Assembly (NCBI GenBank): GCA_033763575.1
Contig: JANRKF010000006.1
Location: 16,166-80,165 of the forward strand
Source of the DNA: Alphaproteobacteria bacterium
GTDB lineage: Bacteria > Pseudomonadota > Alphaproteobacteria > Rickettsiales > SXRF01
Reading direction: 5' to 3'
Length of the DNA stretch: 64,000 nt
Shown here: piece by piece, positions 10,827-56,300 of the stretch
Position numbering within the stretch: the stretch's first letter is position 1
Layout of the letters: every line of letters begins with the position of its first letter
Position numbers and translations under genes: made by a program
The notes under the pieces: generated by a model
The model's database searches: none
Seen by the model: the letters and a program-made list of their open reading frames with translations, nothing else
What the model was told of the DNA's origin: nothing

Positions 10827-12570
<1,744 letters not shown>

Positions 12571-12573
<3 letters not shown>

Positions 12574-12885
12574 AGCGGCTTTCTTACCAGCCGATGCGCC
12601 TTCAATGATACCGATGACATCGCTTTCTTTGAGGACGAGCAAATCTTTGCCATCGAGTTTGATTTCGTTGCCGGCCCATTGGGTGAAGAGCACGATATCG
12701 CCCACAGCCACATCCACCGGGATGCGTTTGCCGTTTTCGTCTTTCGCGCCTGCGCCGACGGCGAGCACTTTCGCCTGTTTCGGTTTTTCTTTGGCAGAAT
12801 CCGGGATGATGATGCCGCCAGCAGTTTTTTCTTCTTGTTCGATACGTTCAACGACGATACGGTCGCCGAGTGGTTTGATGTTCAT
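12571..12885 (-). CDS. groES: co-chaperonin GroES (Cpn10)
   Basis: 104 aa. [35 protein letters not shown] is a canonical GroES N-terminus and mobile loop. Confidence 0.97.
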
Positions 12886-12999: not shown

Positions 13000-13611
13000 A
13001 TGCAATCTCCCGCCAAGAATTGTTCTAAATGCCCGCGTTTATGCGGTTTCCGCAAAGAAAACGCGGTAAAATTTCCCGGCTATCATAATGCGCCGGTGCC
13101 GTCGTTCGGCGAGCTTTCGGCGGAGCTTCTGGTGGTGGGGCTTGCCCCAGGCCTGCATGGCGCCAACCAGACCGGGCGGCCTTTTACCGGCGATTATGCG
13201 GGGATTGTGCTCTATGCTGGGCTGCAGAAATATGGTTTTACGCTGGCCAATTGCCGCATCACCAATGCCGTGCGTTGTGTTCCGCAGGAAAATAAACCGG
13301 AGCCGTCGGAAATTAAAAACTGCAACGTGTTTCTCAAGGATGAAATCGCCGCCATGCCGAACCTGAAGGCGATTCTTTCATTAGGGCTGGTCTCGCATAA
13401 TGCGGTGCTGCGGGCGCTGGGGCTTAAAGCGAGTGCCGCGAAATTCGCGCATGGCGCCATTTACAGCTTGCCTGCCACTTGCCACCTATCACCTGTCACC
13501 TTGTACGACAGCTATCACTGCTCGCGTTACAATATTAATACCGGGCGGCTCTCGCAGGGGATGTTTGACGTGGTGATAGAAAATATAAGTTCGTCATTGC
13601 GAGGAGCGTAA
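13000..13611 (+). CDS. uracil-DNA glycosylase superfamily protein (family 4/5-like)
   Basis: 203 aa with CSKCPRLC, GLAPGLHGANQTGRPFTGD and SYHCSRYN.NTGRL motifs. The last residues SSLRGA and the stop codon are encoded by a palindromic repeat. Confidence 0.8.
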   Translation: MQSPAKNCSKCPRLCGFRKENAVKFPGYHNAPVPSFGELSAELLVVGLAPGLHGANQTGRPFTGDYAGIVLYAGLQKYGFTLANCRITNAVRCVPQENKPEPSEIKNCNVFLKDEIAAMPNLKAILSLGLVSHNAVLRALGLKASAAKFAHGAIYSLPATCHLSPVTLYDSYHCSRYNINTGRLSQGMFDVVIENISSSLRGA

Positions 13612-13686
13612 GCGACGCGGCAATCCATCTGTCTATCTGCTATAAATAAGATGGGATCGCCGCGGCCTTTGGCCTCGCGATGATGA
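13591..13686. repeat. nested palindromic element, GTCATTGCGAG type (copy A1)
   Basis: TCGTCATTGCGAGGAGCGTAAGCGACGCGGCAATCCATCT ... AGATGGGATCGCCGCGGCCTTTGGCCTCGCGATGATGA. It fills the gap between the convergent udg gene and the 13687 gene. Confidence 0.8.
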
Positions 13687-15813: not shown

Positions 15814-16623
15814 CTATAACTTCCTCCCCGTATGCAGCGCGACCACACCGCCGGTCATGTTGCGGTAGTTCACATTTCCGAAGCCTGCGACCTTTATCAT
15901 TTTTGCGAATGTTTCCTGGTCGGGGAATTTGCGGATGCTCTCCACTAAATACTGGTAGCTCGCCCGGTCCTGCGTGATCTGCTGGCCTATCCACGGAATT
16001 ATGTTGAAGGAATAGCTGTCATAAATTTTTGCCAATACCTCGTTGGGAATATGGCTGAATTCGAGGCACAAGAATTTTCCGCCGATTTTCAGCACGCGGT
16101 AGGCTTCGGCGAGCGCCTTTTCAATATGGGTGACGTTGCGGATGCCGAACGCGATGGTATAGGCGTCGAAATGCGCGTCGGGGAAGGGGAGCGCTTCGGC
16201 ATTGCCCACCACCCATTCGAGGCCTTCGCGCCGGTTGGCATCGATCGCACGATTTTTTCCTTCATTCAGCATCGCCTCATTAATATCGCAGACAGTGACA
16301 TTAATTCCGTCATCCCGGCGAAGGCCGGGATCCATATCAGGCGACTCGCTCGTAGATGAACGTAGATTCCGGCCTGTGCCGGAATGACAATATTTCAAAA
16401 TGCGAAACGCGATGTCCCCCGTGCCGCCCGCCACATCCAATACATGCTGTCCGGATCTGGGGGCAAGCGCGCTGACCATCTCGCGTTTCCACAGACGGTG
16501 CAGGCCCGCGCTCATCACGTCGTTCATGATGTCGTATTTGCCTGCGACCGAATCGAATACGCCGCGCACGCGCCGCTCTTTTTCCTGCTCGTCGACTGTC
16601 TGGAATCCGAAATGGGTTTGCAT
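15814..16623 (-). CDS. ubiE: demethylmenaquinone/ubiquinone C-methyltransferase UbiE, carrying an in-frame repeat insertion
   Basis: [48 protein letters not shown] and the GG.F.CLEFS motifs identify it. Start is the ATG at 16623. An extra segment ([29 protein letters not shown]) follows motif I. Confidence 0.9.
16304..16390. repeat. nested palindromic element, GTCATCCCGGC type (copy B1), inside ubiE
   Basis: CCGTCATCCCGGCGAAGGCCGGGATCCAT ... GATTCCGGCCTGTGCCGGAATGACAA. Each arm contains its own hairpin. Confidence 0.8.
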
Positions 16624-16630
16624 GAAGATG

Positions 16631-16734
16631 GTCTCTGGGTTTCTAGGTCGCTTGGTCTCTCGGTTGGACAACATACACATTCTTTTGTACCAATCAACCT
16701 AGAGACCTAGCAACCGAGCGACCAAGAAACCCAC
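16631..16734. repeat. period-8 NGGTNNCT word hairpin element filling the ubiE/mutM divergent spacer
   Basis: Left arm: GGGTTTCTAGGTCGCTTGGTCTCTCGGTTGG. Reverse complement of the right arm: GGGTTTCTTGGTCGCTCGGTTGCTAGGTCTCTAGGTTG. Confidence 0.7.
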
Positions 16735-44950: not shown

Positions 44951-45012
44951 TCGTTGGTCGCCAGTCTTTGGTCTCGGGGGACTAAAGACAAAAGACCAGA
45001 GACCAGGGACTA
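44951..45012. repeat. GGTCT-word hairpin element in the infB-rbfA spacer
   Basis: TCGTTGGTCGCCAGTCTTTGGTCTCGGGGGACTAAAGACAAAAGACCAGAGACCAGGGAC uses the same words (GGTCTTTGGTCT, ACTAAAGAC) as the groES-groEL spacer. Confidence 0.65.
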
Positions 45013-45016
45013 TTTT

Positions 45017-45421
45017 ATGGCAAAACTACACGATTTATTTTCACAAAAAGGCTCGGCAGGACAGCGTCCGAAGCGGGTGGGCGAGGAAATCCGCCGGAGT
45101 CTTGCGGATATTTTCCTGCGCGGCGAGTGCAACTTTCCCGATTTGCTGGGCCATTCCATTACCGTATCGGAAGTGCGGGTGGCGCCCGATATGAAAAACG
45201 CCACGGCGTTCGTCATGCCGCTGGCCGGGAATAACAAAAAAGAATTGCTCGATGCCCTGAAAATCGCCGCGCCCGAACTGCGCTATCTTGTTTCCAAAAA
45301 GATGCAGCTGCGCTATATGCCACGCATCCATTTCGCCCTCGACGAATCCTTTGAAGTGGCCGAAAAGATCGACCTCCTGCTCAAAAAGCCGGAAGTGGCC
45401 AAAGACCTCGAACCCAAATAA
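45017..45421 (+). CDS. rbfA: ribosome-binding factor A
   Basis: Starts at the ATG at 45017. Contains RPKRVGEEIRRSLADIF, ITVSEVRVAPDMKNATAFV and PRIHF.LDES. Confidence 0.9.
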   Translation: MAKLHDLFSQKGSAGQRPKRVGEEIRRSLADIFLRGECNFPDLLGHSITVSEVRVAPDMKNATAFVMPLAGNNKKELLDALKIAAPELRYLVSKKMQLRYMPRIHFALDESFEVAEKIDLLLKKPEVAKDLEPK

Positions 45422-46368
45422 TGCACGGCTTCATCAACCTCAACAAGCCGCTCGGCCTGTCCTCGGCGCAGGCTGTGGAACGGGTGAAGAAAATACTTCG
45501 TTCGTCATTGCGAGCCGAAGGCGAAGCAATCCAGCCTGGATTGCCGCGTCGCTCCGCTCCTCGCAATGACATAAAGATAGGCCATGCCGGAACGCTTGAC
45601 CCACTGGCTTCCGGGGTGCTGGTGCTGGCGCTGGGCGAGGCGACCAAGCTGGTGAACTACGCCCAGGATGCTCAGAAAGCCTATGAATTTACAGCCACAT
45701 GGGGCGAGGCGCGTGATACCGACGATGCCGAGGGAGCGGTCGTCGCGACCTCCGATAAACGCCCGGCGCAAGCGGAAATAGAAGCGATCCTGCCGCAATT
45801 CACCGGGGAAATCATGCAGGCTCCCCCGGCCTTTTCCGCGATCAAAATGGGCGGGAAACGGGCCTATGCCATGGCGCGGGCGGGCGAGGCGCCAGAAATG
45901 CAGGCGCGGCCGGTGCGGGTAGACAGGTTGCAGGTGACAGGTGACAGGGGGCAGAAAGATTCCCATGCCACCTCATTCTTCATAGAATGCGGCAAAGGCA
46001 CCTATATCCGGTCACTGGCACGCGATATGGGGCAGCAATTGGGGGTTTACGGCTATGTTTCCATGCTGCGGCGGGTGGGGGTAGGAAAATTCGGTATTTC
46101 CGATGCGATTTCGCTGGATAAACTGGAAGAAATGGTGCATAAGGGCGACCTCGGTTTTTTAAAGCCGCCTCAGTGGGTGCTGGACGACATCTTGGCATTC
46201 ACGCTGAACGAGGCGGAAGCGGGCATGCTGAAGCGTGGCCAGGCGATTGAGAAACACCCTGCTCTTGCAAGCGATCAGATTGTCGCCTGTGTGCTCGGGG
46301 GCACGCTCATTGCCGTCGGTCGCACAGATGCGCGCTTTCTGAAGCCGGAGAGAGTGTTTAATTTATAA
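45421..46368 (+). CDS. truB: tRNA pseudouridine-55 synthase TruB, carrying an in-frame repeat insertion
   Basis: GFINLNKPLGLSS, then a 25-aa insert, then GHAGTLDPLASGVL.LALGEATKL, PPAFSAIK and CGKGTYIRSLARD. Confidence 0.92.
   Translation: MHGFINLNKPLGLSSAQAVERVKKILRSSLRAEGEAIQPGLPRRSAPRNDIKIGHAGTLDPLASGVLVLALGEATKLVNYAQDAQKAYEFTATWGEARDTDDAEGAVVATSDKRPAQAEIEAILPQFTGEIMQAPPAFSAIKMGGKRAYAMARAGEAPEMQARPVRVDRLQVTGDRGQKDSHATSFFIECGKGTYIRSLARDMGQQLGVYGYVSMLRRVGVGKFGISDAISLDKLEEMVHKGDLGFLKPPQWVLDDILAFTLNEAEAGMLKRGQAIEKHPALASDQIVACVLGGTLIAVGRTDARFLKPERVFNL
45499..45573. repeat. nested palindromic element, GTCATTGCGAG type (copy A2), in frame inside truB
   Basis: CGTTCGTCATTGCGAGCCGAAGGCGAAGCAATCCAGCCTGGATTGCCGCGTCGCTCCGCTCCTCGCAATGACATA encodes RSSLRAEGEAIQPGLPRRSAPRNDI. 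Confidence 0.85.
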
Positions 46369-46678: not shown

Positions 46679-46683
46679 CTACA

Positions 46684-46768
46684 AGGGGCTAGGTTCTAGG
46701 GGCTAGGTGCTAGTAAAGCGGCGTTAAAATGCCTTTTTACTAGACCCTAGAGCCAAGCGCCTAGCGCC
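46684..46768. repeat. CTAGG-word long imperfect hairpin in the rpsO-pnp spacer (rpsO terminator and/or pnp leader)
   Basis: AGGGGCTAGGTTCTAGGGGCTAGGTGCTAGTAAA ... TTTACTAGACCCTAGAGCCAAGCGCCTAGCGCCT. About 25 of 34 arm positions are complementary. Confidence 0.65.
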
Positions 46769-46796
46769 TTTCATCAACACGAAAGGAAATAGAAGA

Positions 46797-53894: not shown

Positions 53895-54908
53895 ATGCTG
53901 ATCCTCCGCCCGGTGATGATGAACGACCATGCCGCGCTGCTGGCGCTTGCCAAAGAGGCGGGCATCGGCATGACGTCGCTGCCGGCGGATGCGGATGTGC
54001 TGGAAAGCAAGATCGGGCGGGCGGAGCTGAGCATGGCCGGCAGCGAGGAATGGAAAGGGCTGGAGGCCTTCCTGCTGGTGCTGGAAGACAGCGAAACCGG
54101 CAAGCCCGTGGGCACCACCGGCATCGTCGCGCATGTGGGGCTTCGCAATCCGTTTTATTCCTACAAGCTTTCGACCATCGTGCAGGCCTCGAAGGAGCTG
54201 GGGGTTTATTCCAGCCAGCAGGTGCTGCACATGGTAAATGATTATACCGGCGCGTCGGAAATCGGCTCGCTGTTCCTGACCAAAGACTACCGCCGCGACG
54301 GCATCGGCCGTTTCCTCTCCCGCGCCCGTTTCCTGATGATGGCGGAATTCCCGGAATATTTTTCCGACGTGGTGATTTCTGAAATTCGCGGCGTGCAGGA
54401 CGAGGCGGGCGAATCGCCCTTCTACAAAAACCTCGCGCAGCATTTTTTCCAGATGCCGTTCAAAAAAGCCGATTTTATCCACGCCACGCAGGGCGGCCAG
54501 TTCGTCACCGACCTGATGCCCCGCTACCCGATTTACGTGAACCTGCTGGATGCGCGGGCGCAGGCGGTGATCGCCCAGCCGCACCAGCTTTCCCTGCCCG
54601 CCAAGCAAATGCTGGAGGCCGAAGGATTTACCCACCAGGGGTATATCGACGTGTTCGACGCCGGGCCGACGTTGCAGGCGAACCGTGCCACCATCCGCAC
54701 CGTGCGCAAGAGCCGGAAGCTGCCGGTCGCGGAGATTAAAAATATCGACGGCGCCTCCACCCACATGGTCGGCAATACCCGCTTCGATCATTTCCGCATC
54801 GCCCCCGCCGCGATTGAAATCGGCAAGGATGGCGTGGCGGTGGATGCCGCACTCGCCGAGGCGTTGCGCCTCAGCATCGGCGACCCGGTGCGGGTGGCGG
54901 AGCTGTAG
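53895..54908 (+). CDS. astA: arginine N-succinyltransferase
   Basis: 337 aa. It appears collinear with E. coli AstA as I recall it (LRPV...D...L..LA...G.G.TSLP, SYKLSTIVQASKELGVY, SPFY..L...FF.M.F..ADF, MP..PIYV.LL, IDVFD.GPTL). Confidence 0.85.
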   Translation: MLILRPVMMNDHAALLALAKEAGIGMTSLPADADVLESKIGRAELSMAGSEEWKGLEAFLLVLEDSETGKPVGTTGIVAHVGLRNPFYSYKLSTIVQASKELGVYSSQQVLHMVNDYTGASEIGSLFLTKDYRRDGIGRFLSRARFLMMAEFPEYFSDVVISEIRGVQDEAGESPFYKNLAQHFFQMPFKKADFIHATQGGQFVTDLMPRYPIYVNLLDARAQAVIAQPHQLSLPAKQMLEAEGFTHQGYIDVFDAGPTLQANRATIRTVRKSRKLPVAEIKNIDGASTHMVGNTRFDHFRIAPAAIEIGKDGVAVDAALAEALRLSIGDPVRVAEL

Positions 54909-54909
54909 G

Positions 54910-55488
54910 ATGACCGAACCTTTCGCGCAATTTTCTGAATGGCTGGAAGCCGCCAAAGCCTGCAAGGAAATTTCCGAGCCGACGGCGATGGCGCTGGCAA
55001 CGGCGACGAAGGACGCTATACCCTCCGTGCGTATCGTGTTATTAAAAGGCATCGACGAGCGTGGCTTCGTTTTTTATACCAACATGGCCAGCCGCAAAAG
55101 CCGCGAACTCATCCAGAACCCAATGGCATCCGTATGTTTCCACTGGATGCCGCTTTCCCGTCAGGTACGGGTAGGGGGTATAGTAGAGCGGGTGAGCGAC
55201 GCCGAGGCCGACGCCTATTTTGCCAGCCGTCCGCGTGAGAGCCAGATTGGGGCGTGGGCGTCGCAGCAGTCGGAGCCGCTGGCGTCGCATGCCGCATTGG
55301 AACAGGCGGTCAAAGAGGTGGAAAAACGATTTGAGGGGAAAGAGGTGCTGCGCCCGCCGCATTGGTCGGGGTGGCGGTTGATACCGCAGGAGATGGAATT
55401 CTGGCAGCAGGGGAAATTCCGGTTGCATCACCGGGAGGTGTTTATCAGGACGAAGGACGGGTGGGATCAACAGCTGTTATATCCCTGA
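54910..55488 (+). CDS. pdxH: pyridoxamine 5'-phosphate oxidase
   Basis: Starts at the ATG at 54910. Contains EPTAMALATA...IPSVRIVLLKG.DERGFVFYTN..SRK, RQVRV.G, SRP..SQIGAWAS.QS and EFWQ....RLH.R. Confidence 0.9.
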   Translation: MTEPFAQFSEWLEAAKACKEISEPTAMALATATKDAIPSVRIVLLKGIDERGFVFYTNMASRKSRELIQNPMASVCFHWMPLSRQVRVGGIVERVSDAEADAYFASRPRESQIGAWASQQSEPLASHAALEQAVKEVEKRFEGKEVLRPPHWSGWRLIPQEMEFWQQGKFRLHHREVFIRTKDGWDQQLLYP

Positions 55489-55640: not shown

Positions 55641-55727
55641 GACGTCATTGCGAGCGACAGCGAAGCAATCCATCTTGACAGCCTGCGAAAGATGGATTGC
55701 CGCGTCGCTTCGCTCCTCGCAATGACG
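55641..55727. repeat. nested palindromic element, GTCATTGCGAG type (copy A3), intergenic
   Basis: GACGTCATTGCGAGCGACAGCGAAGCAATCCATCTTGACAGCCTGCGAAAGATGGATTGCCGCGTCGCTTCGCTCCTCGCAATGACG. Confidence 0.85.
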
Positions 55728-55767: not shown

Positions 55768-56193
55768 TTAGGCGACTTCCGCCCGGCAATTGGGTGTTTC
55801 ATGCAGCGTGACCTGCGTGCAGCGCAGCCCGCTTTTCCCGAATAAATCCGGGCAGACCACATTGAAAATATAGGCCGCCATATTCTCGGCAGTGGGGTTT
55901 TCGGGCAGGTAGAAAATCGCCTGCTGCGTGTGTTCGGCGATGGACCGGCCCAGCGGCGCATCTTTCCGGTAGAGGATCGTATTGTGATCCCAATGCTCGT
56001 CGATCCAGCCACCCAGCTTTTCCTTGATGACCGCGAAATCGACCACCCGCCCGAGCGCATCGAGCGTATCGGCGGTGAACGTGACTTCCAGCACATAGCG
56101 GTGGCCGTGCAGATGCTTGCACTGCCCCTCATGCTCCATCACGCGGTGGGCGGCATCGAATTCAAGGCGTCGGGTGCAGGTGATCATGGTCAT
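55768..56193 (-). CDS. queD: 6-carboxy-5,6,7,8-tetrahydropterin synthase
   Basis: F.AAHRV..HEGQCKHLHGHRY.LEVT and DH...L. The start is uncertain (56187, 56193 or 56211). Confidence 0.85.
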   Translation of the reverse strand: MTMITCTRRLEFDAAHRVMEHEGQCKHLHGHRYVLEVTFTADTLDALGRVVDFAVIKEKLGGWIDEHWDHNTILYRKDAPLGRSIAEHTQQAIFYLPENPTAENMAAYIFNVVCPDLFGKSGLRCTQVTLHETPNCRAEVA

Positions 56194-56300
56194 TGGTTTG
56201 TTTATATACATTAATTAGGTTGATTTTTATTCTATTTGCAGGCTACAAAAGGATAGCGTAGGCGTGGCCTGCGTTCAACAGAATATCGTGGGGAATATTT

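Follow-up and report, generated by a model that had tools for sequence, protein, structure and literature searches.

How does a perfect palindrome come to lie inside the reading frame of a conserved enzyme? The question is raised by truB, the gene for tRNA pseudouridine-55 synthase, on contig JANRKF010000006.1 (assembly GCA_033763575.1) of an alphaproteobacterium of the order Rickettsiales. We analysed a stretch of 64,000 nucleotides of this contig (positions 16,166 to 80,165 of the forward strand; 55.5% G+C), referred to here as the window. The truB insert is very probably a mobile hairpin repeat that is non-autonomous, consisting of only the arms of a longer unit that carries a GIY-YIG nuclease gene, and it has been retained in a permissive surface linker of the protein.

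The gene lies in an infB-rbfA-truB-rpsO-pnp cluster (from the list of open reading frames, ORFs), and its product is identical in sequence to GenBank MDX2072983.1, which derives from a metagenome-assembled genome (MAG). Pfam finds TruB_N (E = 9e-49) and TruB_C_2 in the ORF. The NCBIfam equivalog TIGR00431 scores 218 bits against a cutoff of 151, and its match begins only at residue 52. The insert is positioned between helix α1 and the catalytic strand KIGHAGTLDP. The letters of this 75-nt segment agree with those quoted in a preliminary description of the window, which reported 25 residues added in frame; the translation, RSSLRAEGEAIQPGLPRRSAPRNDI, indeed contains no stop codon and no frameshift. 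Solved TruB structures from E. coli and M. tuberculosis match the query on either side of the insert and have no counterpart for its residues ~27/29-51, consistent with the earlier statement that few residues separate the two blocks in E. coli TruB. The invariant catalytic aspartate, D60, follows the insert by nine residues, so the insertion does lie shortly upstream of the catalytic motif. The label "essential-type" that had been given to truB is inaccurate; E. coli truB deletants are viable. More generally, tRNA-modifying enzymes have been described that can be deleted without obvious phenotype (PMC11214086).

Within the extra codons, the palindromic element proper is 69 nt long and consists of two CGTC-tagged units in inverted orientation. 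The left arm reads CGTC-ATTGCGAG-CCGAAGGCGAA-GCAAT-CCAG, with the CGTC tag at 45503-45506. A loop of ~3 nt connects it to the right arm, which has the long form, ends in ...CTCGCAATGACA and presents a TGTC tag on the minus strand at 45571-45568. All 11 positions of the outer stem and all eight of the inner stem are paired. As RNA, the element folds at -35.6 kcal/mol (z -3.6; no shuffle out of 200 does as well), and as DNA at -21.9 kcal/mol (z -4.8). A single arm has only the 5-bp ATTGC/GCAAT stem around an interior of 12-18 nt, and at -2.7 to -4.5 kcal/mol it folds no better than shuffled sequences. Four of the six reading frames of the element are free of stops, and one of these four, reading SLRAEGEAIQ...PRRSAPRND, is the frame used in truB.

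Other copies of the family occur in the window. A profile built from 164 arms of other genomes identifies exactly three elements, with arm E values of 2.5e-9 to 8.9e-8 and nothing else below E = 2.8; in truB it matches 45502-45534 (+) and 45571-45536 (-) with E values of 2.5e-9 and 8.9e-8. The preliminary description had listed intergenic copies at 13591 and 55641. Both exist, but the former is not purely intergenic: its left arm encodes the final seven residues (...SSSLRGA) of a uracil-DNA glycosylase (UDG) and provides the TAA stop of the gene. The other copy carries a CGTC tag on both arms and is located between convergent genes, a typical position for a repetitive extragenic palindrome (REP). 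Rfam at gathering thresholds gives no matches in the whole window. A relaxed S-adenosylhomocysteine (SAH) riboswitch match on the truB element is sub-threshold (17.6 bits against 37, E = 0.43) and is treated as chance. A literature search with exact 11-mers of the element returns unrelated primer sequences only. The coordinates are collected in Table 1.

Table 1 Coordinates of truB, its insert and the family copies in the window.
Feature	Coordinates	Strand	Evidence or context
truB (tRNA pseudouridine-55 synthase), 315 aa	45421..46368	+	ORF list, Pfam, NCBIfam, AlphaFold2 (AF2) model
Extra codons, n = 25, translation RSSLRAEGEAIQPGLPRRSAPRNDI	45499..45573	+	Sequence, ORF, ortholog alignment, codon comparison with the L002 empty site
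Palindromic element proper, 69 nt, inverted dimer of CGTC-tagged units	45503..45571		Stem pairs, folds, nhmmer arms
Second copy, left arm intact, right arm decayed	13591..13686		Overlaps 3' end of family-4 uracil-DNA glycosylase gene 13000..13611 (+)
Third copy, 85 nt, 11/11 outer stem	55643..55727		Intergenic, between convergent pdxH-like 54685..55488 (+) and queD/PTPS 55768..56211 (-)

The source is a MAG and repeats are classic points of mis-assembly, so a mis-assembled repeat has to be considered, as does a truB pseudogene in decay. We regard both as very unlikely. A single sequencing read is longer than the element, truB continues without a break and in one frame on either side of it, the invariant catalytic residues are all present, and the protein outside the insert models with high confidence (predicted local distance difference test, pLDDT, above 90). 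In addition, an independent assembly from another sample (contig L001) contains the same kind of insertion.

In a collection of 5.8 billion proteins, the closest TruBs (P0002-P0005, 71-76% core identity) lack the insert and have a linker of 7-10 residues, against 25+ in the window protein. The net gain of the window protein over them is 21-22 residues (22 in the insert region of the alignment). The nearest empty site (L002) reads CTT CGC CGT ATT ACC AAA GAT TTC AAG ATC, and the window reads CTT CGT (element) ATA AAG ATA. The alignment is best read as an insertion that entered truB after the split from the nearest sampled relatives, and the perfect stems suggest that it is young. Among the other TruBs, a homologous segment is found in one only, P0010 (contig L001). 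It is of the same family and occupies the same linker in the same orientation and frame, with the sequence SSLLRAEGEAILSDSKAGLPRRLAPRNDKI. P0010 belongs to a different clade, and in its relatives P0029, P0030, and P0035 (81% identity) the linker is empty and of the canonical form KP[SD]K. Because these relatives lack the segment, the insertion is recurrent rather than ancestral, and on the aligned sequences the two events are best read as independent. The opposite reading, an ancestral segment or a lineage-specific TruB loop in which ordinary divergence resembles a repeat, could appeal to the segment in P0010 and to the variable length of the linker among orthologues. It is effectively refuted by the perfect DNA palindrome with its family profile E value of 2.5e-9, by the right arm, which is 97% identical to that of the intergenic copy 10 kb away, and by the absence of the segment from the nearest relatives of both the window TruB (P0001) and P0010.

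The two truB copies share the arm spacer CCGAAGGCGAA, and we considered whether this makes them orthologous. Metagenomes contain this arm variant in at least 120 stretches (131 copies, none of them in truB among the matches listed). It is therefore a common subtype and provides no argument for common descent, and each TruB has closer relatives with an empty site; orthology is rejected. Recombinational transfer of a 5' patch of truB is rejected as well, since the flanking DNA of the window and L001, compared by eye, is no more alike than the protein motif demands. A protein word search with a 50-residue N-terminal fragment spanning the insert gives no matches, and an exhaustive HMMER search with the 30-residue insert peptide returns 12 proteins, all of them spurious ORFs through tandem repeat arrays. 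In L001, a gene pair for a MazE antitoxin and a PIN-domain toxin (408-1055) lies directly upstream of truB and overlaps its start, at the usual place of rbfA.

To see where TruB accepts extra residues, we aligned 120 TruBs and recorded inserts of at least 10 residues. The long inserts concentrate at two places, the α1 linker (~20 sequences) and a loop near residues 174-182 (~28 sequences). Outside these two places, only rare single cases and a small number of N-terminal extensions occur, the latter perhaps due to mis-called starts. All six linker inserts examined at the DNA level are significant palindromes (z -2.8 to -8.1). The ATTGCGAG type accounts for two of them and other CGTC/TGTC-tagged dimers for a further two (P0049 and P0025), while the remaining two (P0021 and P0034) belong to a GEG family with the signature "CCCTCTCCC...GGGAGAGGG", which is unrelated to the CGTC types and whose peptides are seen again at the second loop. 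The α1 linker of alphaproteobacterial TruBs is thus occupied by at least four palindrome types, comprising at least three CGTC-type subfamilies and GEG. At the second loop (aligned to ~170-186), segments of 39-66 residues replace the usual 13-18 in P0014, P0021, P0027, P0032, P0038, P0040, P0043, P0063, and P0074, and many of these segments bear the PSPL.GEG...PLP.GEG signature of GEG palindromes. The sphingomonad truB insertions of Di Nocera et al. also map to this second loop (site B), not to the α1 linker.

This recurrence might instead reflect integration specificity, with the linker upstream of the conserved AAAATCGGCCAYGC (KIGHA) serving as a preferred DNA target. Such targeting would explain why two clades with empty-site relatives carry one family at this linker with matching orientation and frame, why further CGTC-type and two GEG-type inserts are found at the same place, and why several filled sites end in ...GAC AAR ATA AAA ATC (KIKIGH). 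Still, we consider it unlikely. The ancestral linker is ~3 codons long, so tolerated hits are confined to ~9 nt and any surviving truB hit looks "site-specific". The unrelated GEG family occurs both at this site and at the second TruB loop, pointing to tolerance at the protein level. The flanks of ~80 copies in other genomes have neither a shared target nor a duplication, and the absence from truB of the 131 listed metagenomic copies of the same arm variant does not suggest a preference for the gene. The evidence favours a survival filter, in which palindromes insert at many places but persist only where they fall in frame in one of the two tolerant surface loops.

The AF2 model of the window TruB has a mean pLDDT of 93.8 and an intact fold, and superposes on the E. 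coli TruB-RNA complex (PDB 1K8W) with template modelling (TM) scores of 0.84/0.87. The weakest stretches are the insert, with the lowest pLDDT of 71-74, and the 171-180 loop, with 75. In the model, helix α1 extends to residue 34, so that the first eight inserted residues continue the helix, and residues 35-52 form coil.

The helical continuation raises the question of whether the insert has acquired a function in TruB, such as a contact with tRNA or a partner, or whether its hairpin tunes expression of the rbfA-truB-rpsO-pnp transcript. The strong RNA hairpin of -35.6 kcal/mol would suit such exaptation, as would the other palindromes of this cluster, which lie in its infB-rbfA and rpsO-pnp spacers. 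Against this, the DNA palindrome is still perfect, which argues for a young insertion or a constraint at the DNA level rather than refinement at the protein level. Close relatives function without the insert, the insert has the lowest model confidence, and unrelated sequences occupy the same site in different lineages. A functional role is thus distinctly improbable.

The family to which the truB element belongs is widespread. A genome scan with the pattern GTCATTGCGAG-N(4-16)-GCAATCC finds at least 120 genome stretches from many phyla. Among the matches listed, alphaproteobacterial hosts include Bradyrhizobium, Sphingomonadales, Rhodospirillales, Micavibrio, Rickettsiales, and Candidatus Finniella, and other hosts include Legionellales, Bacteroidota, Chloroflexota, Planctomycetota, Melainabacteria, and Helicobacter. 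The consensus is CGTCATTGCGAG-(CGAAGCGAA or GAGCGAAGCGACGAA)-GCAATCCAG. In ~80 complete copies, the order is CGTC-ATTGCGAG-(short CGAAGCGAA or long GAGCGAAGCGACGAA)-GCAAT-CCAG, a variable loop and the mirror arm. Most of these copies begin with CGTC or TGTC, all complete copies are inverted dimers whose tags face outward, and a short arm is usually paired with a long arm. Of 21 long ORFs that span copies in other genomes, only truB and a uvrA gene (L070) look real; the rest look like spurious GC-rich ORFs, as judged without Pfam. The L070 UvrA, which carries the ATTGCGAG family in frame, scores above its equivalog cutoff with the match split at the insert. Upstream of the start, the N-terminal extension of the same UvrA ORF reads CHSEQSEESL...FTAFRMT, the signature of yet another palindromic repeat type.

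Tandem and nested arrangements of the repeat also occur. L234 (139-840) and L175 (329-1006) contain head-to-tail arrays of a 90-nt ATTGCGAG-type element with a period of 119-121 nt, in six and five copies, respectively, and gene callers read such arrays as repetitive "proteins" such as P0121-P0132. At L010 (7245-7357) and L190 (2074-2190), a GEG-type or a second ATTGCGAG-type unit lies inside the loop or arm of a ATTGCGAG element, suggesting that the repeats insert into one another.

Most of the defining features place the element within the CGTC-tagged REP superfamily. For this superfamily, which is divided into four families, Di Nocera et al. (2013, PMC3733652) describe a CGTC tag, stems whose first pairs are A-T and T-A, a CCA tail, and units arranged mostly as inverted dimers, in mainly alphaproteobacterial genomes but also in other phyla, and include in the superfamily the Rickettsia palindromic elements (RPEs) RPE-4 and RPE-6 and the Neisseria repeat dRS3. 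They locate the repeats usually just 3' of genes and occasionally in frame within them, list truB repeats for S. maltophilia, E. litoralis (residues 164-190), and S. alaskensis (residues 169-177), and recall RPE-1 in truB of R. conorii. They also state that the superfamily "apparently lacks a dedicated transposase" and that no REP-associated tyrosine transposase (RAYT) flanked by CGTC repeats was found. The truB element shares the outer CGTC/TGTC tag, the stem opening with A-T and T-A pairs, the CCA tail, and the inverted dimer that folds into one long hairpin, and the arm pattern ATTGC...GCAAT-CCAG with CGTC is present in all three window copies and in the consensus. It differs in the single unit, which in the superfamily has an 8-9-bp stem and a 4-5-nt loop and here a 5-bp stem (ATTGC/GCAAT) around 12-18 nt. 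The view that this organism carries a sequence-distinct system of its own does not hold, since the family spans many phyla and has features of the superfamily that includes RPE-4 and RPE-6.

In behaviour, the element resembles the RPEs, as had been proposed. RPE-1-type repeats are dispersed palindromes that lie in frame in unrelated housekeeping genes, where they add a peptide and leave the fold intact (Ogata et al. 2000, as summarised in PMC10969869). The truB family is likewise in frame in truB and uvrA and forms the 3' end of the UDG gene. The likeness drawn here is one of behaviour; RPE-1 is ~150 bp long, the truB element is 69 nt, and the host is not a Rickettsia (55.5% G+C).

A candidate for the mobilising activity is suggested by loci in other genomes. 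In numerous metagenomic loci, a lone arm directly adjoins the stop codon of a short ORF that ends in ...REKQIKGGSRAKKIALIETMNPEWKDLYESLA, and translation of the fetched loci shows ORFs of ~95 residues between both element arms. A small profile detects 13 ORFs of this kind among those loci. For seven of them (L082, L163, L183, L197, L200, L214, and L233) both arms lie within 200 nt and the unit measures 360-495 bp; L173 was added by eye, as its left arm is the GTGATTGCGAG variant, absent from the automated count. The ORFs encode the GIY-YIG catalytic domain (Pfam PF01541, E = 9e-19 and 9e-16). NCBIfam gives no match to these proteins, and a sequence search of the PDB matches only UPF0213 BH0048 (the best, E = 1e-4) and UvrC. 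Since the same arms frame GIY-YIG genes elsewhere, the 69-nt truB element corresponds to the arms-only form of the nuclease-bearing unit. In sharing its arms with a longer coding unit it resembles a miniature inverted-repeat transposable element (MITE), although the GIY-YIG unit encodes no recognised transposase.

This arrangement parallels that of the Ssn nucleases, single-domain GIY-YIG proteins of ~94 residues (cd10448) that bind CGTC hairpins in single-stranded form and cleave immediately upstream (Chenal et al. 2025, PMC11893778). The ssn genes are typically flanked by repeats, an arrangement called identical to that of insertion sequences (PMC11893778). The ATTGCGAG loci, in which a single-domain GIY-YIG gene of ~95 codons has arms on both sides, are organised like NTS-ssnA-NTS. 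The ATTGCGAG arms also conserve the nucleotides on which cleavage and binding by Ssn critically depend, GTC ahead of the palindrome and C immediately behind it, and tandem repeat clusters occur in both systems (here L175 and L234). The truB element differs from the Ssn/NTS system in that its arms fail the published Ssn-related motif (SRM), its window has no GIY-YIG gene, and NTS repeats are rarely intragenic (2% in N. meningitidis; PMC11893778). A further parallel is the REPIN, a pair of short inverted palindromic units that is non-autonomous and accompanied by a single-copy RAYT gene flanked by the repeats (Bertels and Rainey 2011, PMC3116915). Here too, inverted units form a longer hairpin, the element is non-autonomous, and an enzyme gene is flanked by the same repeats, but the tag is CGTC/TGTC and not GTAG, and the flanked gene encodes a GIY-YIG protein and not a tyrosine (HUH) transposase of the IS200/IS605 type.

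Several observations weigh against the interpretation of the truB insert as a mobile repeat of this kind. The published degenerate motif, HGTCWYN(0-2)YYVSBRHN(0-5)WNVSBRGN(0-2)RNCYNB, matches none of the six window arms, nor the family consensus, and the regular expression does recognise the NTS consensus. Because the SRM motif does not match and the stem of a single arm has 5 bp, it is the architecture that assigns the truB family to the Ssn-recognised class. The 64-kb window contains no GIY-YIG ORF of the between-arm type, and a mobilising enzyme resident in the host genome is hypothetical. Ssn binding and cleavage have been demonstrated for the Neisseria and Wolbachia homologues only, and mobility of CGTC repeats and a role of Ssn in transposition are raised by the authors only as a hypothesis (PMC11893778). 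No target-site duplication or clean junction is found at truB, at the three window copies as a whole or at other copies, and no direct repeats are seen flanking the three window copies. As the linker codons differ between filled and empty truB sites in both clades, the insertion junction cannot be reconstructed from them; in several copies of other genomes, the flanks extend the palindrome instead of duplicating the target. Finally, we infer both that the insert is retained in the protein and that it is neutral.

With these reservations, the events at truB may be pictured as follows. The element would have entered truB after the lineage split from its nearest sampled relatives, copied via a single-stranded DNA intermediate with the nuclease supplied in trans. 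It would be retained if it landed in a short, length-variable surface linker, that between α1 and the strand of the catalytic aspartate, if element and junction together made a whole number of codons, and if the frame used was among the four stop-free ones. With all three in place at truB, translation of the mRNA presumably continues across the element and would yield a TruB with a lengthened helix α1 and an extra loop of ~18 residues, containing an insert peptide such as AEGEAIQPGLPR. This TruB probably remains active.

A second gene in the window provides a parallel case. The SRM regular expression finds one canonical Ssn-type (CGTC-1-like) dimer in the window, at 16308-16389 (CGTCATCCCGGCGAAGGCCGGGATCC...GGATTCCGGCCTGTGCCGGAATGACA), a different subfamily from the truB element. 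It lies in frame within ubiE (15814..16680, -), directly after the S-adenosylmethionine (SAM)-binding motif LDVAGGTGD, and adds ~27 residues. UbiE with the insert still scores above its NCBIfam equivalog cutoff, with the match split in two. Within 64 kb, there are thus two in-frame insertions and one 3'-end fusion.

Other palindromes are present in the window. A further repeat type, rich in GGTCTTTGGTC / GACCAAAGACC, occurs at 12493-12574, 16636-16733, and 44980-45020. Two of its copies are located directly upstream of the likely true starts of ubiE and rbfA, and over-long ORF calls run through the repeats as similar peptides, one of which is ..TKDKRPETRDYFM... The rpsO-pnp spacer (46683-46770) contains an 88-nt imperfect CTAGG-rich palindrome with arms that are 74% complementary. 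In E. coli, this spacer forms a hairpin that is processed by RNase III and autoregulates pnp. The palindrome of the window could be a pnp-type leader or another mobile repeat.

In-frame insertions of REPs and RPEs are already known, including in truB, for which four species have been published, and the general picture is unchanged. Added here are another, independent insertion of this family into the same linker of TruB, a site shared by four palindrome types, a canonical Ssn-type dimer in frame in ubiE of the same window, and a ATTGCGAG arm type that is missed by the published SRM motif yet frames GIY-YIG genes. It is doubtful that the linker is a true integration hot spot, for example through single-stranded DNA or hairpin formation beside AAAATCGGCCAYGC, and that at the same time the ATTGCGAG arms represent an Ssn/repeat pairing missed by SRM. 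If it were so, the filled and empty truB alleles would be a natural assay for the movement of "transposase-less" CGTC repeats.

The truB of this window is a clean and young case in which a selfish hairpin has extended a conserved enzyme, nine residues ahead of the catalytic aspartate, and left the frame intact, and it illustrates how mobile DNA adds peptide material to proteins. It marks two loops of TruB as tolerating ~20-60 extra residues. It also joins two threads, the CGTC repeats without a known mobilising enzyme (Di Nocera 2013) and the repeat-framed Ssn nuclease genes (Chenal 2025), and it provides paired filled and empty truB alleles that are usable for studying insertion and excision.

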